A DNA stretch of 48,878 nucleotides from contig JBIOZN010000056.1 of assembly GCA_044871175.1 (NCBI GenBank), positions 1-48,878 of the forward strand, written 5' to 3'. Source of the DNA: Acidimicrobiales bacterium (GTDB taxonomy: Bacteria > Actinomycetota > Acidimicrobiia > Acidimicrobiales > Ilumatobacteraceae). Position numbers and translations under genes: made by a program. The notes beneath the pieces are model-generated. The model had not been told where the DNA came from. It was given only the letters and a program-made list of their open reading frames with translations, and ran no database searches. Positions within the stretch are counted from its first letter, which is position 1. Every line of letters starts with the position of its first letter. This document shows positions 25,059 through 46,684 of the stretch, in pieces.

Positions 25059-25065
25059 ACCAGTC

Positions 25066-25095
25066 ACTCTAGCGTAAAGTAGCGCCCGGGCGCAA
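25066..25095 (-). promoter_or_regulatory. conserved sigma70-type promoter, copy A (TTGCGC-N18-TAGAGT)
   Basis: Minus strand: GTTGCGCCCGGGCGCTACTTTACGCTAGAGT. One of six near-identical copies. Confidence 0.65.
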
Positions 25096-25100
25096 CCCCG

Positions 25101-30362: not shown

Positions 30363-30698
30363 ATGCCGCCCCGTCAGGCCACCGTCGATGTGCAACAAGC
30401 CGTTGACCTGTTGCGGACCGGGCAGCTCGCCTTCGCTGGGGAGGCGTTGCGGATGGCGCGGTGGTGCAACGAACGGCTCCACAACCCGTCGACCCAAGAC
30501 CCCGAACTGCTGCACGCCGAACGGATGGCGGTGGCGGCGGTGATGCGGGCCGCCGCCCAGGCCAACGCGTCGGTGGGGCGGCCGATGGCGAACGTGCTGC
30601 CACAGGTGAACGTGACCCTGGCCGCCGGCCCGGCCGCCCCTGCCATTGATGTCATGAGCCGGCTCTTGGAGGACATGGGCCTGCCGCCCGCGTCATGA
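30363..30698 (+). CDS. hypothetical protein, small terminase subunit by position only
   Basis: Trimmed from ORF 29949..30698 to ATG 30363. ATGA overlap with the terminase large subunit. Confidence 0.55.
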   Translation: MPPRQATVDVQQAVDLLRTGQLAFAGEALRMARWCNERLHNPSTQDPELLHAERMAVAAVMRAAAQANASVGRPMANVLPQVNVTLAAGPAAPAIDVMSRLLEDMGLPPAS

Positions 30699-32278
30699 CC
30701 GTGACCCGGTCGTGGGCGTTGCGGGCCGTGCAGGCGTTGGTGGCGGCCTGGCCGACGCTGCCCCCCGACTCGCACAGTGCCGCCCGCCGGTTGCACCGCG
30801 AACTGGTCGCGCTGGAGGCGCAGCAGGCCGGCTCCGCCGAAGCCGTCGGGCTCGTGCTGCAGTCACTGGTCGGCTCCGAGGAAGGGGCGGGCCCGGTGCT
30901 GGCGGGGGTGCGCCGCTCGTGGGCGTGGCGGGGCCGTGACGCCCAGCAGCCGCCGCCCGGGCCGTGGCTGTACTTCCTGGCGCTCGGGGGCCGGGGGGCC
31001 GGCAAATCGCAGACCGTCACCGAGTTTGCGTTGGCGATGGGCGGGGTGGCCGGGGCGGCCCTGCCCAACCTGCCGTTCATGCCCGGCTCGATCGGGGTGA
31101 TCCTGTCGCCCACCAACAACCTGGCTCGCAAGGTGACCGTGGAGGGGCCGTCGGGCCTGTTGCGGACCGCCGAGGGTTACGGGGCGGCGGCCCGTTGGAA
31201 GCCGACCGCGCTGGAGGTGGACCTGGGCAACGGCACCACCGTCCACGTCATGTCGGCCGAGAACCCTGACCGGTTGCGGGGCATCCAGTCGCACTGGACG
31301 GTCGTGGACGAGTTGGGGGCGTTCACCGACTTCGACGCCTGGAACCAGGTGCGTCTCCTCACCCGGCTCCCCATCCCCGGTGACCGCAACCGGATCATCG
31401 CCTCCACCACGCCCCGCCCGGTGGACCCGATCATCGAGTTGGACCGGCGGGCCCGGGAAGGCGACCCGGCGGTGGCGCTCAGCCGCATGACCACCTATGA
31501 GAACGCCGCCAACCTGGGCGAGGCGATCCTGACCGAACTGCGGGCCACCTACGAAGGCACGACGCTCGGCGCCCAGGAGCTTGAAGGGGTGCTGCTCGAC
31601 CCCGAGTCGCAGGGCGCCCTCCTCCAACCCCAGCACTTCCACTGGGTGGAATGGGATGAGGTGCCCCCGTTGGGCCGGGTCACCGTCTCGGTGGACCCGA
31701 CCATCGGCGGCGGCCAAGCCCACCACGACGAGTGCGGAGTGGCAGTGGTCGGGCGGTCCGGCAGCGACGGGTACGTGCTGGCCGACCTCAGCTTGCACGC
31801 CACCACCGAAGGCTGGTGCCGGGTGGTGGTCGACGCTGCCGTCAAGTACGACGCCGACGAGATCGTCTACGAAGGCAACGCCGGTGGCGACCTGATCCCG
31901 GCGATGCTGGCCCGCATCGCCATGGACACCGGGGAGACGCTGCCCCGGGTGCGGGCGGAACGGTCACGGGCCTCCAAGGTGGACCGGGCCCGGCCGGTGG
32001 CGCTCGCCTACGAACAGGGGCGCATCTTTCACGTTGGTGAACTGGCCGCCCTGGAACACGAGTGGGTGACGTGGATTCCGGGGGCCCGCGGCTCGGCCGG
32101 CCGCAGCCCCAACCGGATCGACGCGGTGGCGCAAGGGTTCATGGCGCTCGGGTTGGCGCGCATGCCGGGCCGGCCCGCCCGGGTGCACCGGGTGGGGGCG
32201 CCCGTCGGCCCGCCGCCAGCCGTCCCGCCGGTGGTGCCACGGCGGCGGTCGGCCGCCATCGTCATCCCCGGCCGCTAG
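30695..32278 (+). CDS. terL: terminase large subunit
   Basis: Walker A GGRGAGKS, Walker B-like WTVVDELGAF, C-terminal nuclease-like region. 527 aa. Confidence 0.85.
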   Translation: MTVTRSWALRAVQALVAAWPTLPPDSHSAARRLHRELVALEAQQAGSAEAVGLVLQSLVGSEEGAGPVLAGVRRSWAWRGRDAQQPPPGPWLYFLALGGRGAGKSQTVTEFALAMGGVAGAALPNLPFMPGSIGVILSPTNNLARKVTVEGPSGLLRTAEGYGAAARWKPTALEVDLGNGTTVHVMSAENPDRLRGIQSHWTVVDELGAFTDFDAWNQVRLLTRLPIPGDRNRIIASTTPRPVDPIIELDRRAREGDPAVALSRMTTYENAANLGEAILTELRATYEGTTLGAQELEGVLLDPESQGALLQPQHFHWVEWDEVPPLGRVTVSVDPTIGGGQAHHDECGVAVVGRSGSDGYVLADLSLHATTEGWCRVVVDAAVKYDADEIVYEGNAGGDLIPAMLARIAMDTGETLPRVRAERSRASKVDRARPVALAYEQGRIFHVGELAALEHEWVTWIPGARGSAGRSPNRIDAVAQGFMALGLARMPGRPARVHRVGAPVGPPPAVPPVVPRRRSAAIVIPGR

Positions 32279-32695
32279 TCAGACCGCCCACGAACGTTCC
32301 TGCCGGAAGCCCTCGGCGGCCTCGGCGGCCAGCGCGATCGCCGGGCCCGTGGGAATCAGGATGCGGGTCAGACCGGGCGGGGCCTGGGGCCCGACGCGCC
32401 AGGCCCCACCCAGCCCTCGCCACAATGCCACCTCGGCCGGCCAGTCCTCCACGGGGTCCGCCAACCCGCGCCAGACCGCCCCCACGAACACGGCCCGCAA
32501 CGGGATGGTGTCGGCGGCGGCGGCGATCACCGCCAGCCGGGCGACGTCATGCGTGCTCCACCGGCGCCGCGAGCCCGACCCGACGCCAGGCTGGGTGGGG
32601 GCGATGACCCCGAGGGCGATCCAATGGTCGATCACCCGGAAGGTGAGCCCGGTGGCGCGCGCCACCGCCGGGGTGGAGTGCATCACCACGGGCAT
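32279..32695 (-). CDS. MerR-like HTH DNA-binding protein
   Basis: Trimmed to ATG 32695 (ATGA overlap with the WhiB stop). ATGLTFRVIDHWIALGVIAP…RRRWSTHDVARL is MerR-type. Confidence 0.6.
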   Translation of the reverse strand: MPVVMHSTPAVARATGLTFRVIDHWIALGVIAPTQPGVGSGSRRRWSTHDVARLAVIAAAADTIPLRAVFVGAVWRGLADPVEDWPAEVALWRGLGGAWRVGPQAPPGLTRILIPTGPAIALAAEAAEGFRQERSWAV

Positions 32696-32925
32696 CACGC
32701 CACCTGCCGCCGCCGCTGCAACTGGCGCCGCTGGCGTTCGTTGCGGCCGCCCCACACGCCGAACTTCTCCCGCAGCCCGTAGGCGAGGCACTCAGCCGAG
32801 ACGCGACAGCCGGCGCAGATCTCCTGCGCCGGCCGAGGGTTGTCACCCCGGGAAGGGAAGAACAGTTCTGGGCTCATACCCCGGCAGGCAGCGTGCGCCT
32901 GCCAGGGCGGTCGTTCAGGGATCAG
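32695..32925 (-). CDS. whiB: WhiB-family Fe-S transcription factor, probably initiating at non-canonical CTG
   Basis: - The track ORF starts at ATG 32877, but the in-frame upstream sequence encodes W-QAHAAC-RG, the first WhiB Cys.
- No ATG/GTG/TTG occurs in that frame after the preceding stop.
- CTG 32925 has GGAGG 7 nt upstream and forms a CTGA overlap with the GGCT stop. Confidence 0.6.
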   Translation of the reverse strand: MIPERPPWQAHAACRGMSPELFFPSRGDNPRPAQEICAGCRVSAECLAYGLREKFGVWGGRNERQRRQLQRRRQVA

Positions 32926-33326
32926 GCGATTGCCTCCATCATCCAGTCGTTGTTGGGCACGGCCGGCAGGTTGGCGTACCGCTCCGGGTGGGCCGGCGTG
33001 TACACCCAGGCCAGGTGGTCATCCCCCCAAGCATCGGTGACGCGGGCGGCGACGCGACAGTAGAAGTGGGGCACGCCTTCCAACCGGTCCATGAGCGGCA
33101 GGCCGACCAGTTCGGCGGCCGCGTCGTCCCAGCGGATCAGGTCGACCACGGTCAGGGCGCCCGGCTCGGGAAGGGCGAACGGGAAGGCGCGGCCGTGGCC
33201 GACGAGACGGAAGCCGTGGAGAACGCCGGGCTCGGCCCGGGCCAGCCCGGACCACAGGCGGGCGTTGCCTCCGCCCTCCCGCAGGGTGCCGTACACGGCG
33301 ACGGGCCGGATCGTGTCGCAGCTCAT
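32922..33326 (-). CDS. gamma-glutamylcyclotransferase (GGCT/AIG2-like) family protein
   Basis: VAVYGTLREGGGNARLW… N-terminal YGTLxxG motif. 134 aa, typical size. Confidence 0.65.
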   Translation of the reverse strand: MSCDTIRPVAVYGTLREGGGNARLWSGLARAEPGVLHGFRLVGHGRAFPFALPEPGALTVVDLIRWDDAAAELVGLPLMDRLEGVPHFYCRVAARVTDAWGDDHLAWVYTPAHPERYANLPAVPNNDWMMEAIA

Positions 33327-33526
33327 CGGGCCGTCACCCCGTAGGACTCGGCGATCTCAGCGACCGGGGTGGACGCGGCGAAGCGTTGGGGTGGCTGGGC
33401 GATGCCCCGCTCCACCGTCCACGCCCACAGACAGCCGCGCGCCCGGCGCACGGTGAGCGTGCGCCGGGGACTGGTGACGATGGTGACGTAGCCGTCCTCG
33501 TCCAGGGCGGCCTGGTACTCACTCAT
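33323..33526 (-). CDS. hypothetical protein
   Basis: ORF-track ORF. ATGA overlaps at both ends. Confidence 0.65.
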   Translation of the reverse strand: MSEYQAALDEDGYVTIVTSPRRTLTVRRARGCLWAWTVERGIAQPPQRFAASTPVAEIAESYGVTAR

Positions 33527-33720
33527 CGGGCTGTCCGGCGGCGGGTGAGGTGGGCGGTGAGGGGGTCGGCCAGCACGGCGTCGCGCTGGGCGTCGGTCAG
33601 CCGGTCGTGGCGGATGATGACGGAGCCGCAGCGGGTGATGACGAGGTGCCGGCCGGACTGGCGGTCGGTGCCGGTGTGGAGCACGGCCACCGGGGGCGTC
33701 GGGGTAGGGGTGGGGTTCAC
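33523..33720 (-). CDS. hypothetical protein, apparently leaderless
   Basis: GTG 33720 lies 8 nt downstream of the promoter B -10. CCCCTACCC sits in codons 4-6. Confidence 0.6.
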   Translation of the reverse strand: MNPTPTPTPPVAVLHTGTDRQSGRHLVITRCGSVIIRHDRLTDAQRDAVLADPLTAHLTRRRTAR

Positions 33721-33728
33721 GACTAGCC

Positions 33729-33758
33729 AGTCTAGTACCCCGTAGCGCCCAGACGCAA
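33729..33758 (-). promoter_or_regulatory. conserved sigma70-type promoter, copy B (TTGCGT-N18-TAGACT)
   Basis: Minus strand: GTTGCGTCTGGGCGCTACGGGGTACTAGACTGGCTAGTC-GTG. Confidence 0.65.
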
Positions 33759-33765
33759 CCAGTGG

Positions 33766-34059
33766 TCAGGCGATGCGTTCCACCGCCACCGTGAACGCCG
33801 TCAGCGGCCGGTTCGGTTGGCCGTCAGCGCGCAGCGGCCGCACGGTGCTCTGCGTCTGCCAGGCCGTGAACGCCTCGCCCGCCGACGGGAACGTCAACGC
33901 CTCGGCGGCGTGCGAGGTGAGCATGGCGTCGCCACGCCCGTCGAAGGCGTCCACGTCGAACCACTTCACCCACTGGCCTGCCACCTCGGCGCCGCGTGCG
34001 GGGTTGCTCGCGACGCCGACGACCTGCAAGCCCCAGGCGCCCCGGGGCCGGCGGCTCAC
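33766..34059 (-). CDS. hypothetical protein
   Basis: GTG 34059 in a GTGA overlap with the DUF932-like stop. Ordinary composition. Confidence 0.65.
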   Translation of the reverse strand: MSRRPRGAWGLQVVGVASNPARGAEVAGQWVKWFDVDAFDGRGDAMLTSHAAEALTFPSAGEAFTAWQTQSTVRPLRADGQPNRPLTAFTVAVERIA

Positions 34060-35186
34060 GCCGCCACCGCCAGTTGGGCCGCCCGGAGCGCGCCCGCCTC
34101 CAACTCCAGCGCCGTGTCACCGTCGTCCACGTCCTGGGAGACGTAGGTGACCGCCTGGGCGACCCCCAGGGCCGACGTGTCACCGCCAGCGACGAAGGCG
34201 TTGAGGATGGCGTCGGCCTGCGCCGCCGAGTAGCCCATGCCCCGGGCCACCACCTGCAAAGCGGTGGCGGGCTCGGTCAGCTGGTGGCCGGCCAGGGTCC
34301 GCAGCCGGTTGATGGCGGTGTTCAGGTAGGCGGGCGACAGGAAGCTCGCCACCGCGTCACGGGTGCGGGCCTTCACCAGTTCCAGGTTGCGTTGGTGGGT
34401 GTCGTCGGACCACTGCACGACGCCCTCCTCCAGCACCCCGCCGAGGTGGACAGCCTTCTGGGCGTCCATGGTCTGGGTCATGCCGTTGGTGCAGACCTGC
34501 ACCACGATCCGGGGCACGATGCGGAACGCACCCTCACCCACCTCGCTGTTGGTGATGACCAGGCCGGCGTGGATGATCGGGTGGTCGCGGCCGGTGCGGC
34601 CGGAGCGGGGATCGCGGTACCGATCGAGCAGGTCGGGGGCGGCCGCTGTCACCTCCGGGGCGGTCACCCGCACGATCATGCGCCGCTCGGTCAGGTCGGC
34701 CCCGGTGACGGTGGCGGTGACGCCGGCAGCGTTGATGCCGTCCAGGGCGGCCAGGAGGATGTCGAGGTCGTCCATAGGCCGGTAGCGGTCCGACAGGATC
34801 GCCCGACAGAGGGGGGTGGAGCCTTCGCCGCCCCGCAGGGTGCGGACGTAGTGGGCCCGGTTGTCCTTCGCCAGCCAGTAGTTGGCGTTGGTGGCGAGCA
34901 GGTCGGGGGCGGTCTCCCGCATGCGCCGCCAGTAGGCGGTGGGCACGCCCAGCTTCTCGATGAGGTGGCCGTGAGCGACGTTGGTGAGGTCGTGGGCGAC
35001 GAGGGTGTCGGTGGTGGTGACGCCTTCCAGGCTCATCTCGTGGGCCTGTTCGGTGACGACGAGGTGGCCGGTGGCGCTCATGCGAAGCGCGCTGCTCGGG
35101 GCGACGAGGTCGTGGCGCTGGACCGAGCGGTCTTGCAGGGCTTTGACGATGACGTTGAGGTCGCCATCGCGGATCGGGTCGAACAT
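34056..35186 (-). CDS. DUF932-like phage/plasmid protein
   Basis: Trimmed from ORF 34056..35315 to ATG 35186 (CCCCTACCCaccAGGAGacacacaccc upstream). The overall pattern (…AILSDRYRPMDDLDIL…VITNSEVGEGAF…) resembles DUF932. Confidence 0.6.
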   Translation of the reverse strand: MFDPIRDGDLNVIVKALQDRSVQRHDLVAPSSALRMSATGHLVVTEQAHEMSLEGVTTTDTLVAHDLTNVAHGHLIEKLGVPTAYWRRMRETAPDLLATNANYWLAKDNRAHYVRTLRGGEGSTPLCRAILSDRYRPMDDLDILLAALDGINAAGVTATVTGADLTERRMIVRVTAPEVTAAAPDLLDRYRDPRSGRTGRDHPIIHAGLVITNSEVGEGAFRIVPRIVVQVCTNGMTQTMDAQKAVHLGGVLEEGVVQWSDDTHQRNLELVKARTRDAVASFLSPAYLNTAINRLRTLAGHQLTEPATALQVVARGMGYSAAQADAILNAFVAGGDTSALGVAQAVTYVSQDVDDGDTALELEAGALRAAQLAVAA

Positions 35187-35244
35187 GGGTGTGTGTCTCC
35201 TGGTGGGTAGGGGTTGATCTAGGAAGCCTAGCGCAGCGGGGGGC

Positions 35245-35970
35245 TCAGGCGCCCACGCTGAACAGGCGGGGCTCGTCCACCGGCACCCGCCGACGGACGA
35301 CCTCTTTGCCGTCACGCACCGCCAGGTACGTGCCGACGGGAACGTTGATGACCACGTCGGGCGACACTCGGGCGGCGACGCTCATGCGGGCCAGGCACTC
35401 CAGGGTGGAGGCGTAGACCCGGCTGCCGTCAGGCCAGTGGGCCTCCAGCAGCGGCCGGCCGGACAGGCGGGCGACGTGCAACGTGGGGTCCTCGGGGTGG
35501 AGCCAGGCCAGGGCGGCGGAACCCTCGATGGCGGCCAGCCGGGGCACGATCTCGCTCGGCTTGGCGTCGGCCAGGGCGGCGGCGACGGCGTCAGTGTCCA
35601 CCTCGGCCAGGGCGGTCGCTCCCGCCATGGCGTACAGCAACTCGGGGTTGGCGACGGTGCCGTTGTGGATGAGGACGATGCCGGGCCGCACGACGGGGTG
35701 GTTGTTCCGGTTGTCGCGGGGGCTGCCGGTGGTGGCGTAGCGGACGTGGCCGAGCACGTTGCCGGCGTCCCGGGACAGGCGCAGGGTGGGCGCCCACACG
35801 TCGGCCGGTTGGCCGGCCTTGGCGTACCAGACGGACTGGTCGGCCCGCTGCCAGGCGGCGCCGGTGGCGTGGTGACCGCGGGGAAGCAGGGCCTTGAGCC
35901 CGGCTCGGGTCATGCGCCCCAGGTGCAGGGTGGAGCCGGGGGCGGGGGCGATAGCGAAGATGCCGCACAT
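35245..35970 (-). CDS. class-II (Ntn) glutamine amidotransferase
   Basis: Trimmed from ORF 35245..36648 to ATG 35970. N-terminal MCGIFAI (catalytic Cys2), GHVRYATTGS, NNHPV, LIHNGTVANPELL. Confidence 0.8.
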   Translation of the reverse strand: MCGIFAIAPAPGSTLHLGRMTRAGLKALLPRGHHATGAAWQRADQSVWYAKAGQPADVWAPTLRLSRDAGNVLGHVRYATTGSPRDNRNNHPVVRPGIVLIHNGTVANPELLYAMAGATALAEVDTDAVAAALADAKPSEIVPRLAAIEGSAALAWLHPEDPTLHVARLSGRPLLEAHWPDGSRVYASTLECLARMSVAARVSPDVVINVPVGTYLAVRDGKEVVRRRVPVDEPRLFSVGA

Positions 35971-36004
35971 GGGTGCTCTTTCGGGTAGGGGTGAGGCGTT
36001 AGTC

Positions 36005-36033
36005 AGTCTAGCGGGCGTAGCGCCCCGCCGCAA
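36005..36033 (-). promoter_or_regulatory. conserved sigma70-type promoter, copy C (TTGCGG-N17-TAGACT)
   Basis: Minus strand: GTTGCGGCGGGGCGCTACGCCCGCTAGACTGACTAA. Its -35 overlaps the hairpin at 36021-36048. Confidence 0.65.
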
Positions 36034-36048
36034 CGTGGCGGCGGGGCG
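36021..36048 (-). terminator. 11-bp GC hairpin after the amidoligase gene, overlapping the promoter C -35
   Basis: CGCCCCGCCGC (36021-36031) pairs with GCGGCGGGGCG (36038-36048). The loop is 6 nt. Confidence 0.45.
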
Positions 36049-36053
36049 GAAGC

Positions 36054-37109
36054 TCAGTTGGAGCGGGCGACCCGGGCCCGCAGGGCCGTCACCGTGGCGG
36101 CCGGCAGGCTCAGGCTCTCGATCAGCCGGTCCACCGACCGGGTGCGGGCCGGCGGGGCCACCAGGGTGCCGGCGGCCGCGGCGGCCACCGCCGCCGCCAG
36201 CAGCCGCACCCACGTCCGCATCTCGGCGGAGCGCACCGTCCCGTGATGCTGCCTGAACTCCAGGCTGCCCCGGGTGAGCAGGTGGGCCGGGTTGATCGAC
36301 CGGTAGCGGTCCACGGCCGGGCGGAAGCCGATGCGCTTCGCCGCCTTGATGTTGTCGACCTCGGAGGCGCTGAGGCTCTGGCACCAGCGGCTCCGGGAGC
36401 GGCCCGCCCGGAACAGCCGGTTGATGGCCGACTGGCCGTGCGTGTACCAGTCGATCAGCGTGTCCAGCTGGTCGGCGTTCAGCATGCTCACGTCGACGTG
36501 GACGTGCATCCCGGTGCGGCCCGTGCCCTGGGCGCCCGCCGCCCGCAGGCTGTCCATGACCGTGACGGCCTCGGCCAGCCCGGCCTCGCCGGCCAGGATG
36601 GGGCTGACCACCTCGGCGTCCACGGTGCTGTCGCGCTCGGCGCTCCACTCGCGGTAGCCGGCCGCCTGAGCGGCGTGCCAGCCACCCGCCCGCACCGTCC
36701 GGCCCAGCGCCGTCTGCGTGGCGGCGGCGGCGGTGGTGATGCTGATGCCGTCCACCTCGATCTCGACGCCGAACCGGAACCAGTCGGCGATGAGCACCTC
36801 GACCGGGGTGGCGGCCGACTCGACCGGGGCGACCGGCTCGCCGGCCTGGGCCGGGCGGGGCAGGTGCGCCACCAGCGGGTGCTCCCAGTAGGTGCGGGCG
36901 TCGCGGGCCGCCTCACGGGCCGACCGGCGGTCGATGTTGGGGGCCTGGCCGGCCAGCCGGGCGCCGACGATGTGGGCGTCCCAGGCGGCGGCGAAGGTGG
37001 CGAGCCCGGCCAGTTCCTGGGTCCGGCGCCAGCTGGTGCCGATCTGGCGAAGCTCGAAGACCTGGGCGGCCTGCTCTGCGGTGAACCGGCTGCTGGTGGT
37101 GCGGGGCAT
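36054..37109 (-). CDS. amidoligase (COOH-NH2 ligase, Amidoligase_2 family)
   Basis: Trimmed to ATG 37109 (AGGAGcgcttcg upstream). FGVEIEV…WSAERDSTVDAEVVSPILAGEAGL…GRTGMHVHVD…SLEFRQHHGT matches the family pattern closely. Confidence 0.75.
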   Translation of the reverse strand: MPRTTSSRFTAEQAAQVFELRQIGTSWRRTQELAGLATFAAAWDAHIVGARLAGQAPNIDRRSAREAARDARTYWEHPLVAHLPRPAQAGEPVAPVESAATPVEVLIADWFRFGVEIEVDGISITTAAAATQTALGRTVRAGGWHAAQAAGYREWSAERDSTVDAEVVSPILAGEAGLAEAVTVMDSLRAAGAQGTGRTGMHVHVDVSMLNADQLDTLIDWYTHGQSAINRLFRAGRSRSRWCQSLSASEVDNIKAAKRIGFRPAVDRYRSINPAHLLTRGSLEFRQHHGTVRSAEMRTWVRLLAAAVAAAAAGTLVAPPARTRSVDRLIESLSLPAATVTALRARVARSN

Positions 37110-37141
37110 CGAAGCGCTCCTGGGTAGGGGGGGCACTAGTC

Positions 37142-37170
37142 ATACTAGTTGACGTAGCGCCCGGGCGCAA
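37142..37170 (-). promoter_or_regulatory. conserved sigma70-type promoter, copy D (TTGCGC-N17-TAGTAT)
   Basis: Minus strand: GTTGCGCCCGGGCGCTACGTCAACTAGTATGACTAGTG. Also shares about 25 bp upstream of the -35 with copy A (…GAAAGAGCCAC…). Confidence 0.65.
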
Positions 37171-37219
37171 CCCCACCCATGTGGCTCTTTCGGGAAAGAC
37201 TCGGGAACGGCCGAACGGC

Positions 37220-38287
37220 CTACGCGGCCAGCGCCGCCAGGCGGGCCCGCACCGCCAGGTCCACCACCACGTCCACCACCAAATGCACCCGGTCCACCGT
37301 CGTTGGGTTGTCGACAGCGTGCGGCTTGCGGGCGTCCAGGTAGTAGCAGTGGCCGGCCTGGAGGTGGCGCACCGTCTCCTCACCCTCCAACGACCAGGCC
37401 CGCATCACAATGCGCGGGTCGGTCACCAGTGGCACGTGGAACCGGGCGATCTGCCCAACACGAGTGCCGGCGGCCCGGTCGGTGATGTCGGTGTGCCGGC
37501 CCAGATGGCCGTCACCAGTGCCGGCCATGCGCAGCAGCCGCACCCGCTCAGTCCGCGACCACCACGGCACCGCCTCCACTGCCGCGCGCACGGCCGGGCA
37601 CCGCTCCGCCAGCACCGTCCAGTCGCACACGTACCGCAACGACTCAGGATGCTCGGCCTGCCAGGAGCGGGGCATCTCCGACGGCTTGACCCCCCAGCGG
37701 GGATCGTCAGGCCGGAAGCCGCGCAGGCTCACCGCGCTCCACGACCCGTCGCTGTAGAACGGGAAGTCGTCGTGCCAGGCGTCCACCGCCGCCACCTCGG
37801 CCAGCAACGGTCCCAGGTCGAAGGTTTCCGGTAGCTCGGCCAGAGTCACCCGGTCGGCCGGCCCCACCGGCACACCCGACCCGTAGCCCCAACCGGTGAT
37901 CAGCTCGCCGGCTGCTGTCACCCGGTGCAGGTCGGGGGTGCGGCCCTGCGCGGCCAGCCCGTCGGCCAGTCCCCGGTCCTCCCGGTAGGCGTACACGACG
38001 TCGTACCCGGCGAAGCTCGGGATCGGGCCGGCCGGCGTGCGGGCCACGTGGGTCACCTGCCGGGTGCCCGCCGGGAACACGACGGTGGCGCCAGTGAAGT
38101 CGGCCCGTCTCGACGGTCTCCGCAGCACGCTCGTCACCGCCACCGTTCGTTCGGGGCCGGCGGTCCATTCGCGCAGGCCCACCCGCCCGGAGCGCAACTC
38201 GTTGGCGCTGGGGGTGGCGAACGCGCCCGCGCCGAAGCCTTTGGCGTAGCCGGCCAGGAGCCGGGCGGCGGCCGCCACGTCAGTCAT
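37220..38287 (-). CDS. two-domain protein with C-terminal aspartyl/asparaginyl beta-hydroxylase-like 2OG-Fe(II) cupin
   Basis: HLGRHTDITD…RFHVPLVTDP…GHCYYLDARKPHAVDNPTTVDRVHLVVD fits the Asp/Asn-hydroxylase family pattern. The N-terminal ~200 aa are not recognised. Confidence 0.6.
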   Translation of the reverse strand: MTDVAAAARLLAGYAKGFGAGAFATPSANELRSGRVGLREWTAGPERTVAVTSVLRRPSRRADFTGATVVFPAGTRQVTHVARTPAGPIPSFAGYDVVYAYREDRGLADGLAAQGRTPDLHRVTAAGELITGWGYGSGVPVGPADRVTLAELPETFDLGPLLAEVAAVDAWHDDFPFYSDGSWSAVSLRGFRPDDPRWGVKPSEMPRSWQAEHPESLRYVCDWTVLAERCPAVRAAVEAVPWWSRTERVRLLRMAGTGDGHLGRHTDITDRAAGTRVGQIARFHVPLVTDPRIVMRAWSLEGEETVRHLQAGHCYYLDARKPHAVDNPTTVDRVHLVVDVVVDLAVRARLAALAA

Positions 38288-38435
38288 GGCGCTCCGCCTC
38301 GACCTTCCGTTGCAACTCCTCGCCCCACGCGATCAGGTCGATGATGTCCTGGTTGCGGTAGACGGCCTCCCCGCCGAAGGCGGCACCCAGCGACTGTGCC
38401 CGTCGCTTCAGCTGATCCCGCTGTTCAGGCGTCAC
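38280..38435 (-). CDS. hypothetical small protein
   Basis: Trimmed to GTG 38435 (GTGA overlap). VTPEQRDQLKRRAQSLGAAFGG…. Confidence 0.5.
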   Translation of the reverse strand: MTPEQRDQLKRRAQSLGAAFGGEAVYRNQDIIDLIAWGEELQRKVEAERHD

Positions 38436-38551
38436 GGCCGCACCTCGCGGCGCTCGCACCACCAGCACACTTCATCCCGGCCCCGCTCCTCGAACGAGCC
38501 CGTGCGCCAGATCGCCCCGCAGCGCGGGCACCGGACCGGGTGCTCGTTCAC
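38432..38551 (-). CDS. 39-aa zinc-ribbon micro-protein
   Basis: GTG 38551 in a GTGA overlap with the upstream stop. CPRCG…CWWC. Confidence 0.45.
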   Translation of the reverse strand: MNEHPVRCPRCGAIWRTGSFEERGRDEVCWWCERREVRP

Positions 38552-39432
38552 GGCCACGCCACGATCCTGCCTGAGTCCCGGTACCAACGCAGCCTGGACT
38601 TGTCGATGCCGGCGGCGATGCCCACCCACGGGTCGGGGATGGTGTTCTCCCACGCCCACTGGAGGATCGCCCGGTCTTGGGCGGGGGCGGCCTGGATCTC
38701 CGCTCTGAGGGCGGCGAGGTGGCGGCCCGGGTAGTAGCGGCCGTCCCGCATCACGTTGAAGTCGCAGATGACCGTCTCAAAGTCCACCCAGGCCAGGGGC
38801 ACGCCTGCGGCCGCCAGGTGGTCGCGGCACTCGGCGGCGATCGCGTCGAGCCGGGCCGGGGACGGGTTGGGTTCGTCCCAGATGCGTTCCAAGGCGCGCC
38901 GGGGCCCGGACGACTCCCACAAGCAGGCGTCGGGCGCGCTCACCGGCACCCCGTTGACCTTCATGGCGAACTCGGCCCACTCGAAGGCAGTCTGCCGTCC
39001 CACGCCCCACACCGTCCGCAGATGCACCAGGAGCTGCCCCCAGTCGGCCTCCGGGTGGTCGCCGGCCAGACAGGACCGCAGCCAGGCGTCCGGGTCGGGC
39101 AGGGCCCGGCGGGCGTAGTCGTTGAGATGGACGACGACCTTGCCGCCCCGCAGGTTGCGGCGCTCCTGGGTGCAGGGGAAGCGGGCGATGTCATCCCGGT
39201 CGAATGCCTCCAACCATGCGCCCAGCGACGGCCACAACCGGAACGCGGCCCAGGCCGACCCGAAGTCGTCGAAGGCGTTGTACAGCTTCACCAGCCAGCC
39301 GGCCTCGGCGTCGGTGACCACGTCGAGCCCGCGCAGGGTGCGGAGCAGCGCCGCCCACGGCTCCAGGTCACCGGAGTCGGCCTCGATGCGGGCGAAGGTG
39401 ACGAGGTCGGCGAGGGTGGCCCGGTCGATCAT
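38548..39432 (-). CDS. HhH/DNA-glycosylase-fold protein, candidate alpha-glutamyl/putrescinyl-thymine pyrophosphorylase-like (aGPT-Pplase-like)
   Basis: Trimmed to ATG 39432 (ATGA overlap with the kinase stop). VWGVGRQTAFEWAEF is a GxGxxTA helix-hairpin-helix-like motif. The family call is from context and memory, not verified. Confidence 0.4.
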   Translation of the reverse strand: MIDRATLADLVTFARIEADSGDLEPWAALLRTLRGLDVVTDAEAGWLVKLYNAFDDFGSAWAAFRLWPSLGAWLEAFDRDDIARFPCTQERRNLRGGKVVVHLNDYARRALPDPDAWLRSCLAGDHPEADWGQLLVHLRTVWGVGRQTAFEWAEFAMKVNGVPVSAPDACLWESSGPRRALERIWDEPNPSPARLDAIAAECRDHLAAAGVPLAWVDFETVICDFNVMRDGRYYPGRHLAALRAEIQAAPAQDRAILQWAWENTIPDPWVGIAAGIDKSRLRWYRDSGRIVAWP

Positions 39433-39965
39433 CGCAGCACGATGTCCACGAGGGAGCGGGCCAGCGTGCACACCGGGCCGTCGCCGGGCACGTCCAGTCG
39501 GGGCCCGTCCCAGGCGGCGACCAGGTTGTTGACCTTGGTGCGCCGGCCCGCCAGCCAGGCCGGGTTCGGGGCCCAGCCGCGGCTGGCCCGCCGCTCGGCG
39601 GCGACAGCCGGGTCGAGCGTGACCTGGACCAGGAGCACGTCGTAGCCGACGGCCCGGGCGGCGTCGAAGAACTTCAGGTTGGCGAGCCGGTCACCTTCAC
39701 CGAGGACGAACCGGCCGGGGGCGTCAGCCAGCCAGGCGCGCGCCCGGGGCCCCACGCTCATGCTCAACGCGTCGGTGCCAGCGAACCGGGCCCGGCGCAC
39801 CCCCAGGTAGCAGCCGTCGACCACGCCGGTCACCCGGTCCACCAGTTCCACGTGAGCGAAGGGTTTGGCCCGGGGATGTTCATGCCAGTCACCCACCGCC
39901 AGCGCCGCGCCCAGCAGAGTTGTCTTGCCCGCGCCCGGTTCGCCCACCACGTACACCAGCAGCAC
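39429..39965 (-). CDS. small P-loop NTPase/kinase (candidate 5-hmdU DNA kinase-like)
   Basis: Walker A VVGEPGAGKTTLL at the N-terminus. 178 aa. Translationally coupled to the HhH-fold gene. Confidence 0.6.
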   Translation of the reverse strand: MLLVYVVGEPGAGKTTLLGAALAVGDWHEHPRAKPFAHVELVDRVTGVVDGCYLGVRRARFAGTDALSMSVGPRARAWLADAPGRFVLGEGDRLANLKFFDAARAVGYDVLLVQVTLDPAVAAERRASRGWAPNPAWLAGRRTKVNNLVAAWDGPRLDVPGDGPVCTLARSLVDIVLR

Positions 39966-39977
39966 CCATCGAGCGTG

Positions 39978-40214
39978 TCACCCGCAGCGGTGAGGCGTGT
40001 ACAAGGTCTGCCCGTTGTCCCGGCGGGCCTTGGCCTCGTCGGCGTCCAACGCCTCCGCCCACGGGGGCGGGCCCCGATGCACCACCACTCGCCCCGAGCC
40101 CGGGTTGGGGGCGGCGTCCAGGGCCATGATGCGTTCGTCGGGGCCCAACACCCGCCACACGTAGGCGCCGCACCGGGTGCAGCAGTCGCCGGTGGTGCGC
40201 CGACGGAAACTCAC
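39978..40214 (-). CDS. Cys-rich small protein, paralog of 40211..40459
   Basis: GTG 40214 (GTGA overlap). CCTRCGAYVW…ALDAAPN…TLYTPHRCG parallels its neighbour. Confidence 0.55.
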   Translation of the reverse strand: MSFRRRTTGDCCTRCGAYVWRVLGPDERIMALDAAPNPGSGRVVVHRGPPPWAEALDADEAKARRDNGQTLYTPHRCG

Positions 40215-40459
40215 CGCCGCTTCCGCTTCCGCCATTCGCCGGCCTGCGGGCAGGTGACGAAGTGCGACAGGTACAACGGGCCTTCCACCAGGCTCGCCTC
40301 CATCGGCCCCAGCACCCGCGACGTGAGCAGGGCGCCGTCAGCGGTCACCTCCACGTTGCCACCCTCGATCGGTAGCTCGTTGACGGGCAAGGCTTTGCCC
40401 GCCTCGGTCACCGTCCACACGACGGCCGCCTGGCAGGAGCCGCACCGGGCCCCTGTCAC
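40211..40459 (-). CDS. Cys-rich small protein (CxxC…C), paralog of 39978..40214
   Basis: GTG 40459 (GTGA overlap). CGSCQAAVVW…LPVNELPIEGGNVEV…LSHFVTCPQ. Confidence 0.55.
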   Translation of the reverse strand: MTGARCGSCQAAVVWTVTEAGKALPVNELPIEGGNVEVTADGALLTSRVLGPMEASLVEGPLYLSHFVTCPQAGEWRKRKRR

Positions 40460-40554
40460 TCCGGGCCCTCGGCCAGGAGGCGGCCCACGACCAGGCCGAC
40501 CACGACCGACATCACGCACCAGACGGCGATCACGTAGCACGCCGTCGCGATCAC
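40456..40554 (-). CDS. 32-aa transmembrane micro-protein
   Basis: VIATACYVIAVWCVMSVVVGLVVGRLLAEGPE. GTGA overlaps at both ends. Below the ORF-track cutoff. Confidence 0.4.
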   Translation of the reverse strand: MIATACYVIAVWCVMSVVVGLVVGRLLAEGPE

Positions 40555-41411
40555 AGGTGGGCCTCCCGGCGGGAGGCGGCGTTCTCGTCCTGCAAGCGGG
40601 TGGCCTCCCGGGCGGCCCGCAACGGCTCGTCGGCCGGGTCAGGCGCGCATCTCGCCATGCCCGTGCGGGCGTACAACACCACCGTGTACCGGTAGCCGCC
40701 CGACTTGGTCAGCCGGAACGGGGTGACCCCGTGCAGCACCGACTGGCCGTCGAACATGAGCAGGCTGCCGTGGGGGACGGTGAACACGGTGTTGTAGTCG
40801 GCGAGGTGGAGCAGGCCACCCTCGCAGTGGCGTTTGGCGGCCAGCATCACGCTCCACGACCCGACCACGTTGCCGGCGTCACGGTGGTAGGGCAGGCCCG
40901 AGTTGCCGTTGACGATGCCACTGGTGAACGGGGTGCCCGGCAGCCGCCAGGCCGGCGGCACCCCCTTGGCGTCCACCCGGGCGACCGTGTCGGTGTACTG
41001 CTCGGGGGCGGCCACAGCGAAGCTCGCTGTCATCGCCCGGCTCGCCTCCCACAGCACCGCCCCCAGCGTCGGGTATTCGGACTCCAGGGCGCAGCGGCGG
41101 CAGTCGTACCGTTTCCGCAGCGGCACCGGAGGCAGGTAGCCGAACGTGCGGGCCGGGCTGCACAACCCGGACAGGCGGGCCTGGCTGTTGGACGAGAAGG
41201 TGTCCGAGTAGCGGATGTGGCGCAAGTGGTGGGCGACCGCGGTGGCCAGGGCCTCCCGGCCGGTGGCCTGAACGGCGATCAGCTTGCCGGTCGCGGCGTC
41301 CACCAGTCGGGCCGACCCGTCCAGCACCTGGGCGCCGGGCAGGGCGGCCGGGGCGTGGGCCCGGCGGCGGGCCGTCGGGTGCTCACGGCGGTGCGCCGCA
41401 TGGGTCAGCAT
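40551..41411 (-). CDS. 2OG-Fe(II) dioxygenase (TET/JBP-like candidate)
   Basis: HxD (LPYHRDAGN), distal His (SVLHGVTPF) and Arg (GYRYTVVLYAR) at the spacing expected for a DSBH oxygenase. The TET/JBP assignment is inferred from context. Confidence 0.55.
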   Translation of the reverse strand: MLTHAAHRREHPTARRRAHAPAALPGAQVLDGSARLVDAATGKLIAVQATGREALATAVAHHLRHIRYSDTFSSNSQARLSGLCSPARTFGYLPPVPLRKRYDCRRCALESEYPTLGAVLWEASRAMTASFAVAAPEQYTDTVARVDAKGVPPAWRLPGTPFTSGIVNGNSGLPYHRDAGNVVGSWSVMLAAKRHCEGGLLHLADYNTVFTVPHGSLLMFDGQSVLHGVTPFRLTKSGGYRYTVVLYARTGMARCAPDPADEPLRAAREATRLQDENAASRREAHL

Positions 41412-41629
41412 TCCGGCTCCGGTTCGGGCTCAGCGCTGTCGCCGTTGCCGCGCCGCTCGGCCCGGTCAATCACCGCCAACACCCGGCTCAACAGTTCCTC
41501 GGCGCCCACCAGGCCCCGAATGGAGGCGTTGATCTGGTCGCGCTGGGCCCGCAACTGGGCCAGCGACTCCCGCACGTCCAGCAGGCGGGTGGTGGTGTGC
41601 TCCTTCAACTCCTCCCGGGTGTCCATCAC
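41405..41629 (-). CDS. hypothetical coiled-coil protein
   Basis: ORF-track ORF. GTGA overlap with the ParB-like stop. Confidence 0.6.
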   Translation of the reverse strand: MMDTREELKEHTTTRLLDVRESLAQLRAQRDQINASIRGLVGAEELLSRVLAVIDRAERRGNGDSAEPEPEPEC

Positions 41630-42264
41630 GGCTCCGTTTCCACCTGCCGCACCGCTTCGATCACCAGTTGGTAGATGACGCCGGCATTGGTGTCCAGGTC
41701 CAGGGCCCGGCGCAACACGCCCAACGCCTCCACCATGGTGTCGAAGGTGGCCGTCGGGTAGGGCAACACGATCGACCGCAGGTCGGCGGCCTCGTACTCG
41801 TTGGCCCGTTCACCCGGTTCCTGGCCCTGACGGACGGCGCCGTAGCCGCCCTCGGTGAGCGACTGGAGCAGCAGCCCGTACGCCTCGGCGTCGAAGCCGG
41901 TGCCGGCGTAGTCACCGTCAAGCTCGTTGAGCAACGCCATCAGGGCGGCGTCGTCGTAGGCGGCCAGGTCGTTCGACCGGTTGTCGACCAGGAGGATGCG
42001 GCGGGCCTGCTCGTCGTCGACGTCGAGCCGGATCACGTCCACATGGGTCCAGCCGACCGACACGGCCGCCTCCACGGTGCCGTGACCGGCGATGATCCGG
42101 TTGGTGCTGGCCTGCACCAGGATCGGCCGGTACTGGCCGTGGGCCCGCAGCGAGTCGGCGATGACGGCGATGTCGTGGATGCGGGGGTTGCCCGGCCAGG
42201 GCTCCAGGTAGTCGATGGGCACCGACTCGACCTGGCGGGTAGGGGTGTCAGTCACGCTAGCCAC
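41626..42264 (-). CDS. ParB N-terminal-domain (ParB/Srx-fold) protein
   Basis: IDYLEPWPGNPRIHD…IIAGHGTVEAA… ParBc motifs. Start is GTG 42264, or GTG 42255 if leaderless from the TAGGGT element. Confidence 0.7.
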   Translation of the reverse strand: MASVTDTPTRQVESVPIDYLEPWPGNPRIHDIAVIADSLRAHGQYRPILVQASTNRIIAGHGTVEAAVSVGWTHVDVIRLDVDDEQARRILLVDNRSNDLAAYDDAALMALLNELDGDYAGTGFDAEAYGLLLQSLTEGGYGAVRQGQEPGERANEYEAADLRSIVLPYPTATFDTMVEALGVLRRALDLDTNAGVIYQLVIEAVRQVETEP

Positions 42265-42268
42265 CCTA
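42257..42268 (-). promoter_or_regulatory. partial promoter copy: -10-like TAGGGT + GGCTAG directly before the ParB-like start (no -35)
   Basis: Minus TAGGGTGGCTAGCGTGACTGACACCCCTACCC parallels promoter B, TAGACTGGCTAGTCGTGAACCCCACCCCTACCC. Confidence 0.3.
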
Positions 42269-42278
42269 GCCCGGAAGC

Positions 42279-42318
42279 ACAGCGACCCCCGAGCGGCGGG
42301 CCGCTCGGGGGTCGCTGT
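42279..42318 (-). terminator. perfect 18-bp stem / 4-nt loop hairpin
   Basis: ACAGCGACCCCCGAGCGG-CGGG-CCGCTCGGGGGTCGCTGT, between the stop at 42381 and the ParB-like start. No U tract. Confidence 0.55.
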
Positions 42319-42380
42319 CCCCTACCCAGGGGAGCCCCGAGGGGGCGCGCCCCAGGTTACCCGATGACCGCCTAGAGACG

Positions 42381-42569
42381 CTAGCGGGCGGGTCCGGCCA
42401 GGTCGGCGGCGTCAGGGTGAAGGGCGGTGGCGAGCGCGACGAACCAGCGGGCCGCCGCGGCACGGCCACCGACATCGGCGCCAAACCAGGCGGCGAGCGC
42501 CTCGGCGGTCACCCCTGCGTCCTCGTGCAAGGCCGTCCGGGCCAGCGCGCCCGGGGTCACCTCACTCAT
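42381..42569 (-). CDS. hypothetical small protein
   Basis: Trimmed from ORF 42381..42716 to ATG 42569 (ATGA overlap). Confidence 0.55.
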   Translation of the reverse strand: MSEVTPGALARTALHEDAGVTAEALAAWFGADVGGRAAAARWFVALATALHPDAADLAGPAR

Positions 42570-43830: not shown

Positions 43831-43867
43831 GACGGTGGACTCCTTCGGGTCAGGGGGGTGACTACCC

Positions 43868-43897
43868 AGTCTAGCCGGGCGTAGCGTCGTCGCGCAA
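43868..43897 (-). promoter_or_regulatory. conserved sigma70-type promoter, copy E (TTGCGC-N18-TAGACT), embedded in the 3' end of the upstream gene
   Basis: Minus strand: GTTGCGCGACGACGCTACGCCCGGCTAGACT. The TAG of the -10 is the stop codon of 43871..44332. Confidence 0.6.
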
Positions 43898-44332
43898 CGT
43901 CAGGCGGCCGGCGGAGGTGATGCGGCGCACCACGGCCCGACGGCCCGACCGGTTCACCCGCCGCTCCTCGGTGTCCACGGCCAACCCCTTCAGCACCAAA
44001 GCCCGCAACCGGGCGCTGAGCGACTGGTGCCGGCCGCCCAGCAGGGCCTCAACCTCGTCGCTGGTCAGCCCGTCCTCGTGGGCGGCCAGCACCCGCAGCA
44101 CCACCCGCTCCTGGGCCTGGACGTGGGGCAGCATCGAGTAAGCGGCATCAATGGAGGTGTCGGAGCCGGCCACGTAGCCGGGGGCGTCCGGGTAGTGGAA
44201 GCCAACCTCGGCCCGGCAGCCGGCGCACAGCCCGCCGGTGACGTCGTTGGGGTGGAGGCTGGTGGCACCGCACCGTTTGCACTCGGCCGGGTCATCCCAG
44301 AAGGAGGGTTGCTGCGGCGGGGCAGGGGGCAT
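43871..44332 (-). CDS. zinc-ribbon + winged-helix (MarR-like) DNA-binding protein, apparently leaderless
   Basis: CKRCG…CAGC, then VLRVLAAHEDGLTSDEVEALL…RLRALVLKGLAV. ATG 44332 lies 6 nt after a TAGAGT -10-like element. Confidence 0.7.
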   Translation of the reverse strand: MPPAPPQQPSFWDDPAECKRCGATSLHPNDVTGGLCAGCRAEVGFHYPDAPGYVAGSDTSIDAAYSMLPHVQAQERVVLRVLAAHEDGLTSDEVEALLGGRHQSLSARLRALVLKGLAVDTEERRVNRSGRRAVVRRITSAGRLTLRDDATPG

Positions 44333-46545: not shown

Positions 46546-46579
46546 GGGGGTGGCCTTTCGGGGGTAGGGGTACCTACCC

Positions 46580-46608
46580 ACTCTAGCCGGTGTAGCGCCC
46601 CGCCGCAA
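46580..46608 (-). promoter_or_regulatory. conserved sigma70-type promoter, copy F (TTGCGG-N17-TAGAGT)
   Basis: Minus strand: GTTGCGGCGGGGCGCTACACCGGCTAGAGTGGGTAGG. Confidence 0.65.
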
Positions 46609-46684
46609 CCGCGGGTGGGCCCGGGAAGCGGTCATTGGCGGACGCGTCCCCCGGGCCCGGGACGACCGTAGGCCAGGACGGCGC

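Follow-up and report, generated by a model that had tools for sequence, protein, structure and literature searches.

A two-domain oxygenase in a predicted thymidine-hypermodification operon and a neighboring amidoligase, Ntn glutaminase, and cyclotransferase-like trio in a high-GC phage genome

The window analyzed here, i.e., the whole 48,878-nt stretch of contig JBIOZN010000056.1, is a phage genome with a GC content of 72% throughout. A large terminase and an amidase are among its phage genes, and nearly all genes are encoded on the minus strand. The sequence recurs on three other assemblies of sequencing runs, and a near-identity DNA search with positions 32600-38500 gave no match in 50,697 phage records, i.e., no close deposited relative. 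The stretch from 32695 to 38287 contains two separable things. One is a two-domain protein with a cupin-type oxygenase domain (hereafter the cupin protein), which is a gene of the thymidine-modification core operon. The other is a trio of an amidoligase, a stand-alone N-terminal nucleophile (Ntn) glutaminase of the class-II glutamine amidotransferase type (GATase), and a γ-glutamyl cyclotransferase-like protein (GGCT). The first-pass annotation of the window had joined all four enzymes into one candidate arm for adduct synthesis beside the core.

The core operon encodes, in this order on the minus strand, ParB, T-dioxygenase, 5-hydroxymethyluracil (5hmU) kinase, amino-acid:DNA transferase (ADDT, also called AADT or aGPT-Pplase), and the cupin protein. 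The ParB-like protein (41626-42264; Pfam ParB_N, 4.3e-6) is the likely partner of the T-dioxygenase, a Tet_JBP-family member (40551-41411; Pfam Tet_JBP, 6.7e-16) predicted to convert thymine to 5hmU in DNA. The P-loop kinase (39429-39965; Pfam, 4e-33) belongs to the Ploopntkinase3 family and is a predicted 5hmU DNA kinase. The ADDT (38548-39432; Pfam ADDT, 1.2e-12; 294 aa in the gene call) is 53% identical to gp3 of Mycobacterium phage LilMcDreamy and gave no sequence match to the structure of PaMx11 gp46. Tet_JBP, Ploopntkinase3, and ADDT thus stand together with ParB, as in a TET-initiated cluster. No cytosine C5-methyltransferase was found among the window proteins scanned, the window is without a dUMP hydroxymethylase, and no genes for a pyridoxal-phosphate (PLP) decarboxylase, a radical-SAM protein, or an FAD oxidase were found in or beside the cluster.

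ParB-dependent phage T-dioxygenases have been described (PMC13229309). In the TET-initiated, ParB-dependent pathway, thymine is converted to 5hmU in DNA and phosphorylated, and the phosphate is then replaced via the amino-acid:DNA transferase (PMC8989533, PMC13229309, PMC11472151). The core has the gene set of this type of thymidine hypermodification, and a modified thymidine is predicted in the virion DNA. The ParB/TET/kinase/ADDT set is common among actinobacteriophages, and homologs of the kinase and the dioxygenase were found in 404 and 104 phage records, respectively. The names of these genes in databases should be noted. In cluster-B-like mycobacteriophages (e.g., genes 2 and 5 of NC_051582.1), GenBank versions call the Tet_JBP-like gene 'oxidoreductase' or 'thymidine hydroxylase' and the Ploopntkinase3 kinase 'adenylate kinase', whereas many RefSeq records have 'queuine tRNA-ribosyltransferase' for the former and 'terminase small subunit' for the latter. 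The RefSeq names look like annotation errors.

The core operon ends with the gene for the cupin protein (37220-38287, minus strand, 355 aa). The N-terminal domain of this protein (residues 1 to about 175) is found only in this fusion and is weakly GNAT-like, and its C-terminal part (about 180 to 355) is an Fe(II)/2-oxoglutarate (2OG) oxygenase domain of the AspH or proline-hydroxylase type. The Pfam profile Asp_Arg_Hydrox matches residues 224-341 only (E = 5.4e-9; 36.5 against a cut-off of 22.6). His265, Asp267, and His323, which constitute the His-x-Asp...His triad, and Arg333 are invariant across 43 homologs. In the AlphaFold2 model (pLDDT 94), the best Foldseek matches of the C-terminal half are amino-acid hydroxylases and AspH, with E values from 5e-9 to 1e-5. 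The top fold matches are L-proline cis-4-hydroxylase (5e-9), a nucleoside-antibiotic hydroxylase, AspH (1e-6), and proline 3-hydroxylase; the value for entry 4p7w is 5.4e-9. The profile, the iron triad, and the double-stranded β-helix fold place the domain in PF05118.

The N-terminal 175 residues modeled alone also give a confident structure (pLDDT 91), whose best matches in PDB and BFVD are GNAT acetyltransferases at a non-significant level (Foldseek E = 0.02-0.04, TM of about 0.3-0.4). This part alone has no Pfam match, and no clear Q/RxxGxG/A motif for acetyl-CoA was seen by eye. A HMMER search of 1.84 billion representatives gave no more than 35 clusters with the domain, almost all of them proteins in the size class of the cupin protein. 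Among the odd-sized proteins, three of the five checked also possess the hydroxylase domain.

More than 300 full-length homologs of the cupin protein are known at about 50-60% identity. In every context read (a Kribbella prophage, two JGI phage contigs, and LilMcDreamy), the gene is located between ADDT and kinase, often with overlapping stop and start codons; the order in LilMcDreamy is ParB, TET-like, ADDT, cupin, and kinase. Sixty IMG/VR loci with the cupin gene contain ADDT in 34 cases, kinase in 38, Tet_JBP in 32, and ParB in 42. When only the 37 closer loci (≥42% identity) are counted, the kinase is present in all 37, ADDT in 34, and Tet_JBP in 31, the missing partners being largely those of short or truncated contigs. 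This strong co-occurrence with kinase and ADDT places the cupin protein in the core rather than in a separate arm. In the window, no copy of the promoter described below lies between ADDT and the cupin gene, and a copy follows the cupin stop codon; therefore, the gene ends the core operon and does not start the arm. The conserved placement and the IMG/VR counts led us to reject the cupin protein as an arm component, as which it had first been annotated.

The cupin protein very probably belongs to the thymidine pathway. The ADDT/kinase context argues for a DNA adduct or an amino acid as its substrate, rather than a protein with Asp or Asn in an EGF domain. By analogy with PaMx11 (PMC11472151), it may oxidize the adduct that ADDT puts in place, and binding or acylation of this adduct is a further possibility. 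Distant homologs (30-35% identity; loci L132:8403-11846, L130-L146, and L152) directly follow a fusion of ParB with an N6/N4 DNA methylase, with a weak PLP-enzyme-like open reading frame (ORF) and then a terminase beyond them. ADDT, kinase, and TET were not detected near these homologs with profiles built from actinophages. These distant contexts tie the cupin family to ParB-linked DNA modification generally, and the family may have other modified bases as substrates too. The two-domain oxygenase is conserved in one widespread clade of thymidine clusters and is undescribed in the literature searched. Kribbella prophages and a laboratory-culturable Mycobacterium phage are among the members of this clade, and defining the reaction of the oxygenase would give a new tailoring chemistry.

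All members of the trio are also encoded on the minus strand. The amidoligase (36054-37109, 351 aa, a single-gene unit) is an Amidoligase_2 protein, i.e., a glutamine synthetase (GS)-like carboxylate-amine ligase (Pfam, 5.5e-25; 89.1 against a cut-off of 22), and corresponds to phrog_2443 (1.8e-30). It keeps all 24 invariant columns of its subfamily, including FGVEIE (FGxExE), D160..E166-VSP, GMHVH, and E284-R-Q-H, and ATP-dependent ligation of a carboxylate with an amine is predicted from its sequence. We know of no Amidoligase_2 member that has been characterized. The GGCT (32922-33326, 134 aa) is of the GGACT/AIG2 type (GGACT, 4.7e-14; 53.4 against 22.8). Its match covers positions 1-119 of the 120 in PF06094, and YGTL and the Glu residue in DRLEG are visible by eye. 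PDB sequence searches gave nothing usable for the amidoligase, the GGCT, or the ADDT.

The GATase (35245-35970, 241 aa; GATase_6, 6.7e-11; 42.8 against 27) begins with MCGIF, so that the nucleophile Cys2 directly follows the initiator Met. Its Arg in HVRYAT, Asn-Gly in HNG, and Asp in DTD align with the glutamine site of GlmS (BLASTP, E = 2e-10, with an approximate GlmS query), and the protein matches PDB 1xff at 1.2e-6. The extent of this protein should be noted. It consists of the Ntn domain only, with no acceptor (synthase) domain fused to it to take up the ammonia. A canonical amidotransferase identity was therefore rejected, and the GATase is a stand-alone glutaminase or γ-glutamyl amidohydrolase. 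Against the EgtC model TIGR03442, it scores 22.4 bits, which is below the cut-off of 218.65.

PHROGs concurs with the assignments of the GGCT, the GATase, and the amidoligase. The boundaries of the amidoligase, the GATase, the GGCT, and the cupin protein (351, 241, 134, and 355 aa) were the same in gene calls made independently for other assemblies of this phage. All four domain calls of the first-pass annotation therefore hold, each above its Pfam cut-off, and the promoter copies that it had placed before the amidoligase, GATase, and GGCT/WhiB units were found again by a motif search, as follows.

The motif GTTGCG-N5-RCGCTAC-N4-7-CTAGNNTG has six exact copies in the window, all on the coding minus strand, against none expected from 100 shuffles. 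At a distance of 25-40 nt, copy D (37141-37171) precedes the amidoligase, copy C (36004-36034) the GATase, and copy B (33728-33759) the small ORF that opens the GGCT-WhiB unit. The GATase unit contains a 376-aa protein (34056-35186, minus strand), which belongs to phrog_1362 of unknown function (PHROGs, 1.6e-73) and has no match in Pfam or NCBIfam; phrog_1362 is common in phages and shows no consistent link to the trio elsewhere. A 97-aa ORF (33766-34059, minus strand) has no family match. The unit behind copy B consists of two small ORFs of 65 and 67 aa without family matches (33323-33720, minus strand), the GGCT, and, as the last gene, a WhiB-family regulator (32695-32877, minus strand; Pfam Whib, 1.8e-14). 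A small ORF of 51-62 aa (38280-38468, minus strand, from ORF and gene calls), whose stop overlaps the cupin start, has no match in Pfam or PHROGs. The plus strand holds very few genes, among them the large terminase (30695-32278), which is flanked by two minus-strand groups, the structural genes on one side and the MerR-WhiB-GGCT end of the arm on the other.

The three remaining copies of the motif are located at 25065-25096, 43867-43898, and 46579-46609, and one of them precedes genes of the structural half. The motif can be parsed into TTGCGN, a spacer of 17-18 nt, and TAGNNT, an arrangement that we take to be close to the housekeeping promoter form of actinobacteria. The distant copies indicate a general promoter of the phage, predicted to be σA-like, and not a mark of the arm; an arm-specific promoter was rejected in view of the six copies genome-wide. 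The idea that each of the four enzymes has a promoter of its own is accordingly retained for the three units of the trio and abandoned for the cupin gene. The motif was not found in 154 loci fetched from other phages and prophages. A scanner for consensus promoters and terminators returned nothing in 32500-42500, and the phage promoter differs from TTGACA/TATAAT. Within the spacer that separates −35 from −10, a partly palindromic GCG-N6-CGCTAC is conserved, which could be a binding site of a regulator. A GC-rich hairpin was read from the sequence at 36022-36047 on the minus strand (GCCCCGCCGC, loop cacgtt, and GCGGCGGGGC). Its 10-bp GC stem directly follows the amidoligase stop codon and overlaps the −35 element of copy C, and may tie the end of one transcription unit to the start of the following one.

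The combination of a GS-like ligase, an Ntn enzyme, and a cyclotransferase fits the handling of γ-glutamyl groups or amides. A role of the trio in the chemistry of a DNA adduct is plausible, and our leading reading, held at slightly less than even odds, is that the trio would tailor the adduct made by the core through γ-glutamyl or amide chemistry, with DNA as the presumed substrate. The distribution of the trio bears on this reading. We collected 80 IMG/VR loci with the amidoligase together with Arthrobacter phage Ottawa, the phage contig L003, and the window, and grouped them into 56 lineages at 70% identity. An alignment was needed as the query, since a scan of IMG/VR with the single amidoligase sequence found no relatives; word-indexed protein searches found only nine and 19. 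Neighbors were counted within 7 kb, and the counts are lower bounds owing to crude gene calls and profiles (the window GATase itself was missed by the caller). Of the 56 lineages, at least 32 contain GGCT, 24 ParB, 22 a large terminase, 15 a PAPS-reductase/DUF3440 protein, and at least 14 GATase.

Tet_JBP occurs near the amidoligase in about three of the 56 lineages, a minority that is above the base rate. Two of the 56 are IMG/VR contigs with Tet_JBP nearby, against a base rate of about 0.1% of IMG/VR contigs, as calculated from 2,323 5mYOX sequences (PMC13229309). The enrichment of Tet_JBP beside the amidoligase is clear, with the window and Ottawa as further independent cases, yet it concerns a minority of lineages. 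The trio is a separate mobile module that is only occasionally beside the thymidine core and more often has ParB, PAPS-reductase-like genes, DNA methylases, and the terminase as neighbors. Co-occurrence with the kinase/HhH module in related phages, which the four enzymes had been expected to share, is thus strong for the cupin protein and weak for the trio (one of 60 cupin loci and about three of 56 amidoligase lineages).

Several findings weigh against DNA as the substrate of the trio. Fifty-nine of the 60 cupin-core loci are without it, and only one, IMG/VR contig 3300005438_000007, contains amidoligase, GATase, and GGCT, there with the full gene set of the window in a different order. Conversely, TET, kinase, and ADDT are absent from the vicinity of most amidoligase lineages. 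These three are also outside the 25 commonest neighbor families of 11 amidoligase+GATase loci without ParB or TET. The profiles used for kinase, ADDT, and TET derive from actinophage proteins and may miss distant clades. The commonest neighbors of those 11 loci are terminases, DNA methylases, GGACT, exonucleases, WhiB, and dCMP deaminases. The trio usually occupies the end of the DNA-metabolism region, immediately before the terminase, a place where DNA-modification genes are often found as well. Its adjacency to such genes may be positional, and position is therefore a real confounder. In the window, the promoter and the hairpin of the amidoligase set this gene apart from the core operon, and the N-terminal part of the enzyme has neither a Pfam match nor a helix-turn-helix (HTH) match. 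No Amidoligase_2 enzyme is known to act on DNA. Finally, related modules in LUZ24-like Pseudomonas phages have been proposed to act on the cell wall (PMC11945000).

These findings raise the alternative that the trio is an autonomous module acting on a small molecule, a peptide, or a cell-wall precursor, for example a γ-glutamyl compound or the peptidoglycan stem peptides proposed for the LUZ24-like phages, that it has no share in DNA modification, and that it lies beside the core only because accessory genes are usually placed upstream of the terminase. The published cell-wall hypothesis and the separate trio promoters in the window speak for such a module. So does the finding of all or part of the trio in many phages that have neither TET nor kinase nor ADDT (Salgado-like Arthrobacter phages, Bacillus 031MP phages, Porphyromonas phages, and most IMG/VR loci). 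A terminase is the commonest neighbor (22 of the 56 lineages and nine of the 11 amidoligase+GATase loci without ParB or TET). However, the link to Tet_JBP exceeds the base rate about 30-fold and is seen again in other gene orders, and the recurrent enzymatic neighbors are ParB, PAPS-reductase-like proteins, methylases, TET-associated glycosyltransferase (TAGT), and one Mom-family protein, not cell-wall genes. An autonomous module of this kind is the main rival to action on the adduct and a distinct, if not the expected, possibility. Methylases lie within 8 kb of the amidoligase-GATase pairs of the same 11 loci (alignment A7), five of the N6/N4 type and one of the C5 type, together with three dCMP deaminase genes, three WhiB genes, and one gene for a Mom-family protein.

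The trio stands beside TET-linked DNA-modification genes in at least five lineages. Among these are the window and IMG/VR contig 3300005438_000007 with its full set. Arthrobacter phages Ottawa and Kharcho combine the trio with ParB, TET, and kinase, L046 is an amidoligase locus with ParB and TET, and L003 and L091 have ParB and a TAGT. A block of helicase, GGCT, amidoligase, GATase, a small ORF, and a long ParB recurs; it is followed by TET and kinase in Ottawa, by a TAGT in L003 and L091, and by ParB, PAPS reductase, and methylase in Salgado (L155 and L157), where the block wraps around the genome ends. Besides the trio, the Ottawa locus (L002, OQ938580.1 29515-46204) has three genes of the ParB type, a Tet_JBP-like gene annotated as 'oxidoreductase', and a Ploopntkinase3 gene annotated as 'adenylate kinase'. 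Neither ADDT nor the cupin protein was detected there, and the idea that Ottawa has them was dropped; either a divergent transferase is among gp67-gp71 or the pathway is different. The two temperate phage contigs (L003:6540-15259 and L091:9454-18431) contain GGACT, amidoligase, GATase, two ParB genes, and the TAGT (PF20691), and continue with genes for MgsA_C, ATP-grasp, and PIG-L deacetylase proteins, with no recognizable Tet_JBP. In Salgado, the amidoligase-GATase block is at the right end, and the left end has a long ParB, ParB, PAPS reductase, ParB, and methylase.

Two sub-types of the amidoligase can be distinguished. The one without an N-terminal extension occurs with GGCT, ParB, and PAPS reductase and without GATase, and the other, with an extension of 60-110 aa, occurs with GATase. 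The extension of the window enzyme is 110 aa long. In homologs, the extension gave weak HTH matches (HTH_7 in four of 14, HTH_23 in three, and HTH_18 in three; best E = 0.003). This HTH-like extension of the GATase-linked amidoligases suggests contact with DNA, which speaks against an autonomous module. In about 15 of the 56 lineages (L019, L024, L053, L064, L066, and others), amidoligase and GGCT without GATase are found with ParB and PAPS-reductase/DUF3440, a pairing that resembles IbrA/IbrB.

The same data bear on whether the trio could act upstream of AADT on free metabolites, making, activating, or recycling the amino acid or amine to be placed on DNA, either with glutamine as the source of released glutamate or ammonia or through a γ-glutamyl-amine that is built and then trimmed. 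The glutamine-binding residues retained in the stand-alone Ntn domain are consistent with such a route, which would also explain why the trio is optional for the core. GGCT and GS-like ligases, moreover, normally act on free γ-glutamyl compounds, as in the γ-glutamyl cycle, PuuA/PuuD, EgtA/EgtC, and BtrJ/BtrG. However, the trio also accompanies modification cassettes without AADT (Ottawa, Salgado, L003, and L091), and the HTH-like extension suggests that the enzyme touches DNA. Action upstream of AADT is unlikely. A further idea, the alternative offered in the first-pass annotation, is that the amidoligase tags a virion or host protein with a γ-glutamyl or peptide group, which the Ntn enzyme and GGCT remove; this is reportedly the general prediction of Iyer et al. 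in 2009 for such neighborhoods. The neighbors are DNA-metabolism genes, with no structural or protein-substrate gene consistently adjacent, and protein tagging is highly improbable here.

The pathway in the window phage can be envisaged as follows. Thymine in phage DNA would be oxidized to 5hmU, which would be phosphorylated, and the phosphate would be displaced by an amino acid via AADT. The Fe(II)/2OG oxygenase could then oxidize the adduct on DNA, by hydroxylation or by oxidative N-dealkylation like that of PaMx11 gp47 on N-α-glycinylthymidine, and its weakly GNAT-like N-terminal domain could bind the adduct or acylate the product as PaMx11 gp48 does. The trio would be an accessory set to make and break γ-glutamyl groups or amides, recruited in the window phage as a tailoring arm. 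In this set, the ATP-dependent amidoligase would join a carboxylate and an amine, one partner being on the modified base, the Ntn enzyme would supply ammonia from glutamine or hydrolyze a γ-glutamyl amide, and GGCT would remove the γ-glutamyl group as 5-oxoproline. We infer these chemical steps, and DNA as the substrate of the trio, whereas the identities of the domains, their intact catalytic residues, the order of the genes, the promoters, and the counts of co-occurrence are observations.

The DNA product of the window phage is probably a new base. The full scheme, an undescribed hypermodified thymine made by an AADT adduct, oxidation by the fused GNAT-like/Fe-2OG protein, extension or amidation by the amidoligase on DNA, and γ-glutamyl editing by the Ntn and cyclotransferase enzymes, is put forward tentatively, and we consider it rather doubtful. 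If it were true, it would provide the first nucleic-acid-directed Amidoligase_2 enzyme and the first γ-glutamyl 'protecting group' cycle on DNA. Thymidine hypermodifications protect phage DNA against restriction and other nucleases, and the enzymes responsible serve as tools for labeling and sequencing modified bases. The set of amidoligase, GATase, and GGCT is one of the commonest unexplained enzyme sets in phage genomes. The few phages with both the trio and a defined core (the window, Ottawa, and one IMG/VR contig) offer the most direct route to testing DNA as its substrate, and since Ottawa and LilMcDreamy are growable, direct tests are possible.

Enzyme pairs of known systems, EgtA/EgtC (ergothioneine), PuuA/PuuD (putrescine), and BtrJ/BtrG (butirosin), likewise combine a γ-glutamyl ligase with an Ntn enzyme or cyclotransferase that removes the group; the likeness to the trio is one of logic only. 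Phage neighborhoods of Amidoligase_2, class-II GATase, and GGCT were reportedly noted by Iyer et al. in 2009, and these and the LUZ24-type neighborhoods bring together the same three families as the window. In contrast to the 'cell-wall modification module' of LUZ24, the trio of the window is divided among three transcription units beside a thymine-modification operon, and it is without the ATP-grasp and other ligases of the LUZ24-type module.

Genes for amidoligase and glutaminotransferase/amidotransferase were found among 5-HMUDK / aGPT-Pplase2 contigs by Lee et al. 2021, with their function unknown (PMC8989533), and GATases are listed among the genes linked to ParB-dependent T-dioxygenases (PMC13229309). 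The association of amidoligase and amidotransferase with thymidine-hypermodification genes, which the window shares, is thus already published for virome contigs. Of the first-pass proposal of a DNA-adduct arm beside the core, the neighborhood and the kind of chemistry stand, and the association is a minority one that was known before. With the known thymidine-hypermodification pathways (Lee et al. 2018, 2021; PNAS 2026, PMC13229309), the window shares ParB, Tet_JBP, P-loop kinase, and AADT, whereas its tailoring genes, for the two-domain Fe/2OG oxygenase, the amidoligase, the Ntn glutaminase, and the GGCT, include none characterized in such a pathway. In PaMx11, gp46, gp47, and gp48 are AADT, an FAD-dependent N-α-GlyT oxidase that cleaves the glycine adduct, and an acetyltransferase, respectively, and the product is 5-AcNmdU (PMC11472151). 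The window resembles this system in that an oxidizing enzyme is encoded beside AADT, with a partner that possibly has the GNAT fold, and differs from it in that the oxidase of PaMx11 is a flavoprotein, whereas that of the window is an Fe/2OG cupin fused to a weakly GNAT-like domain.

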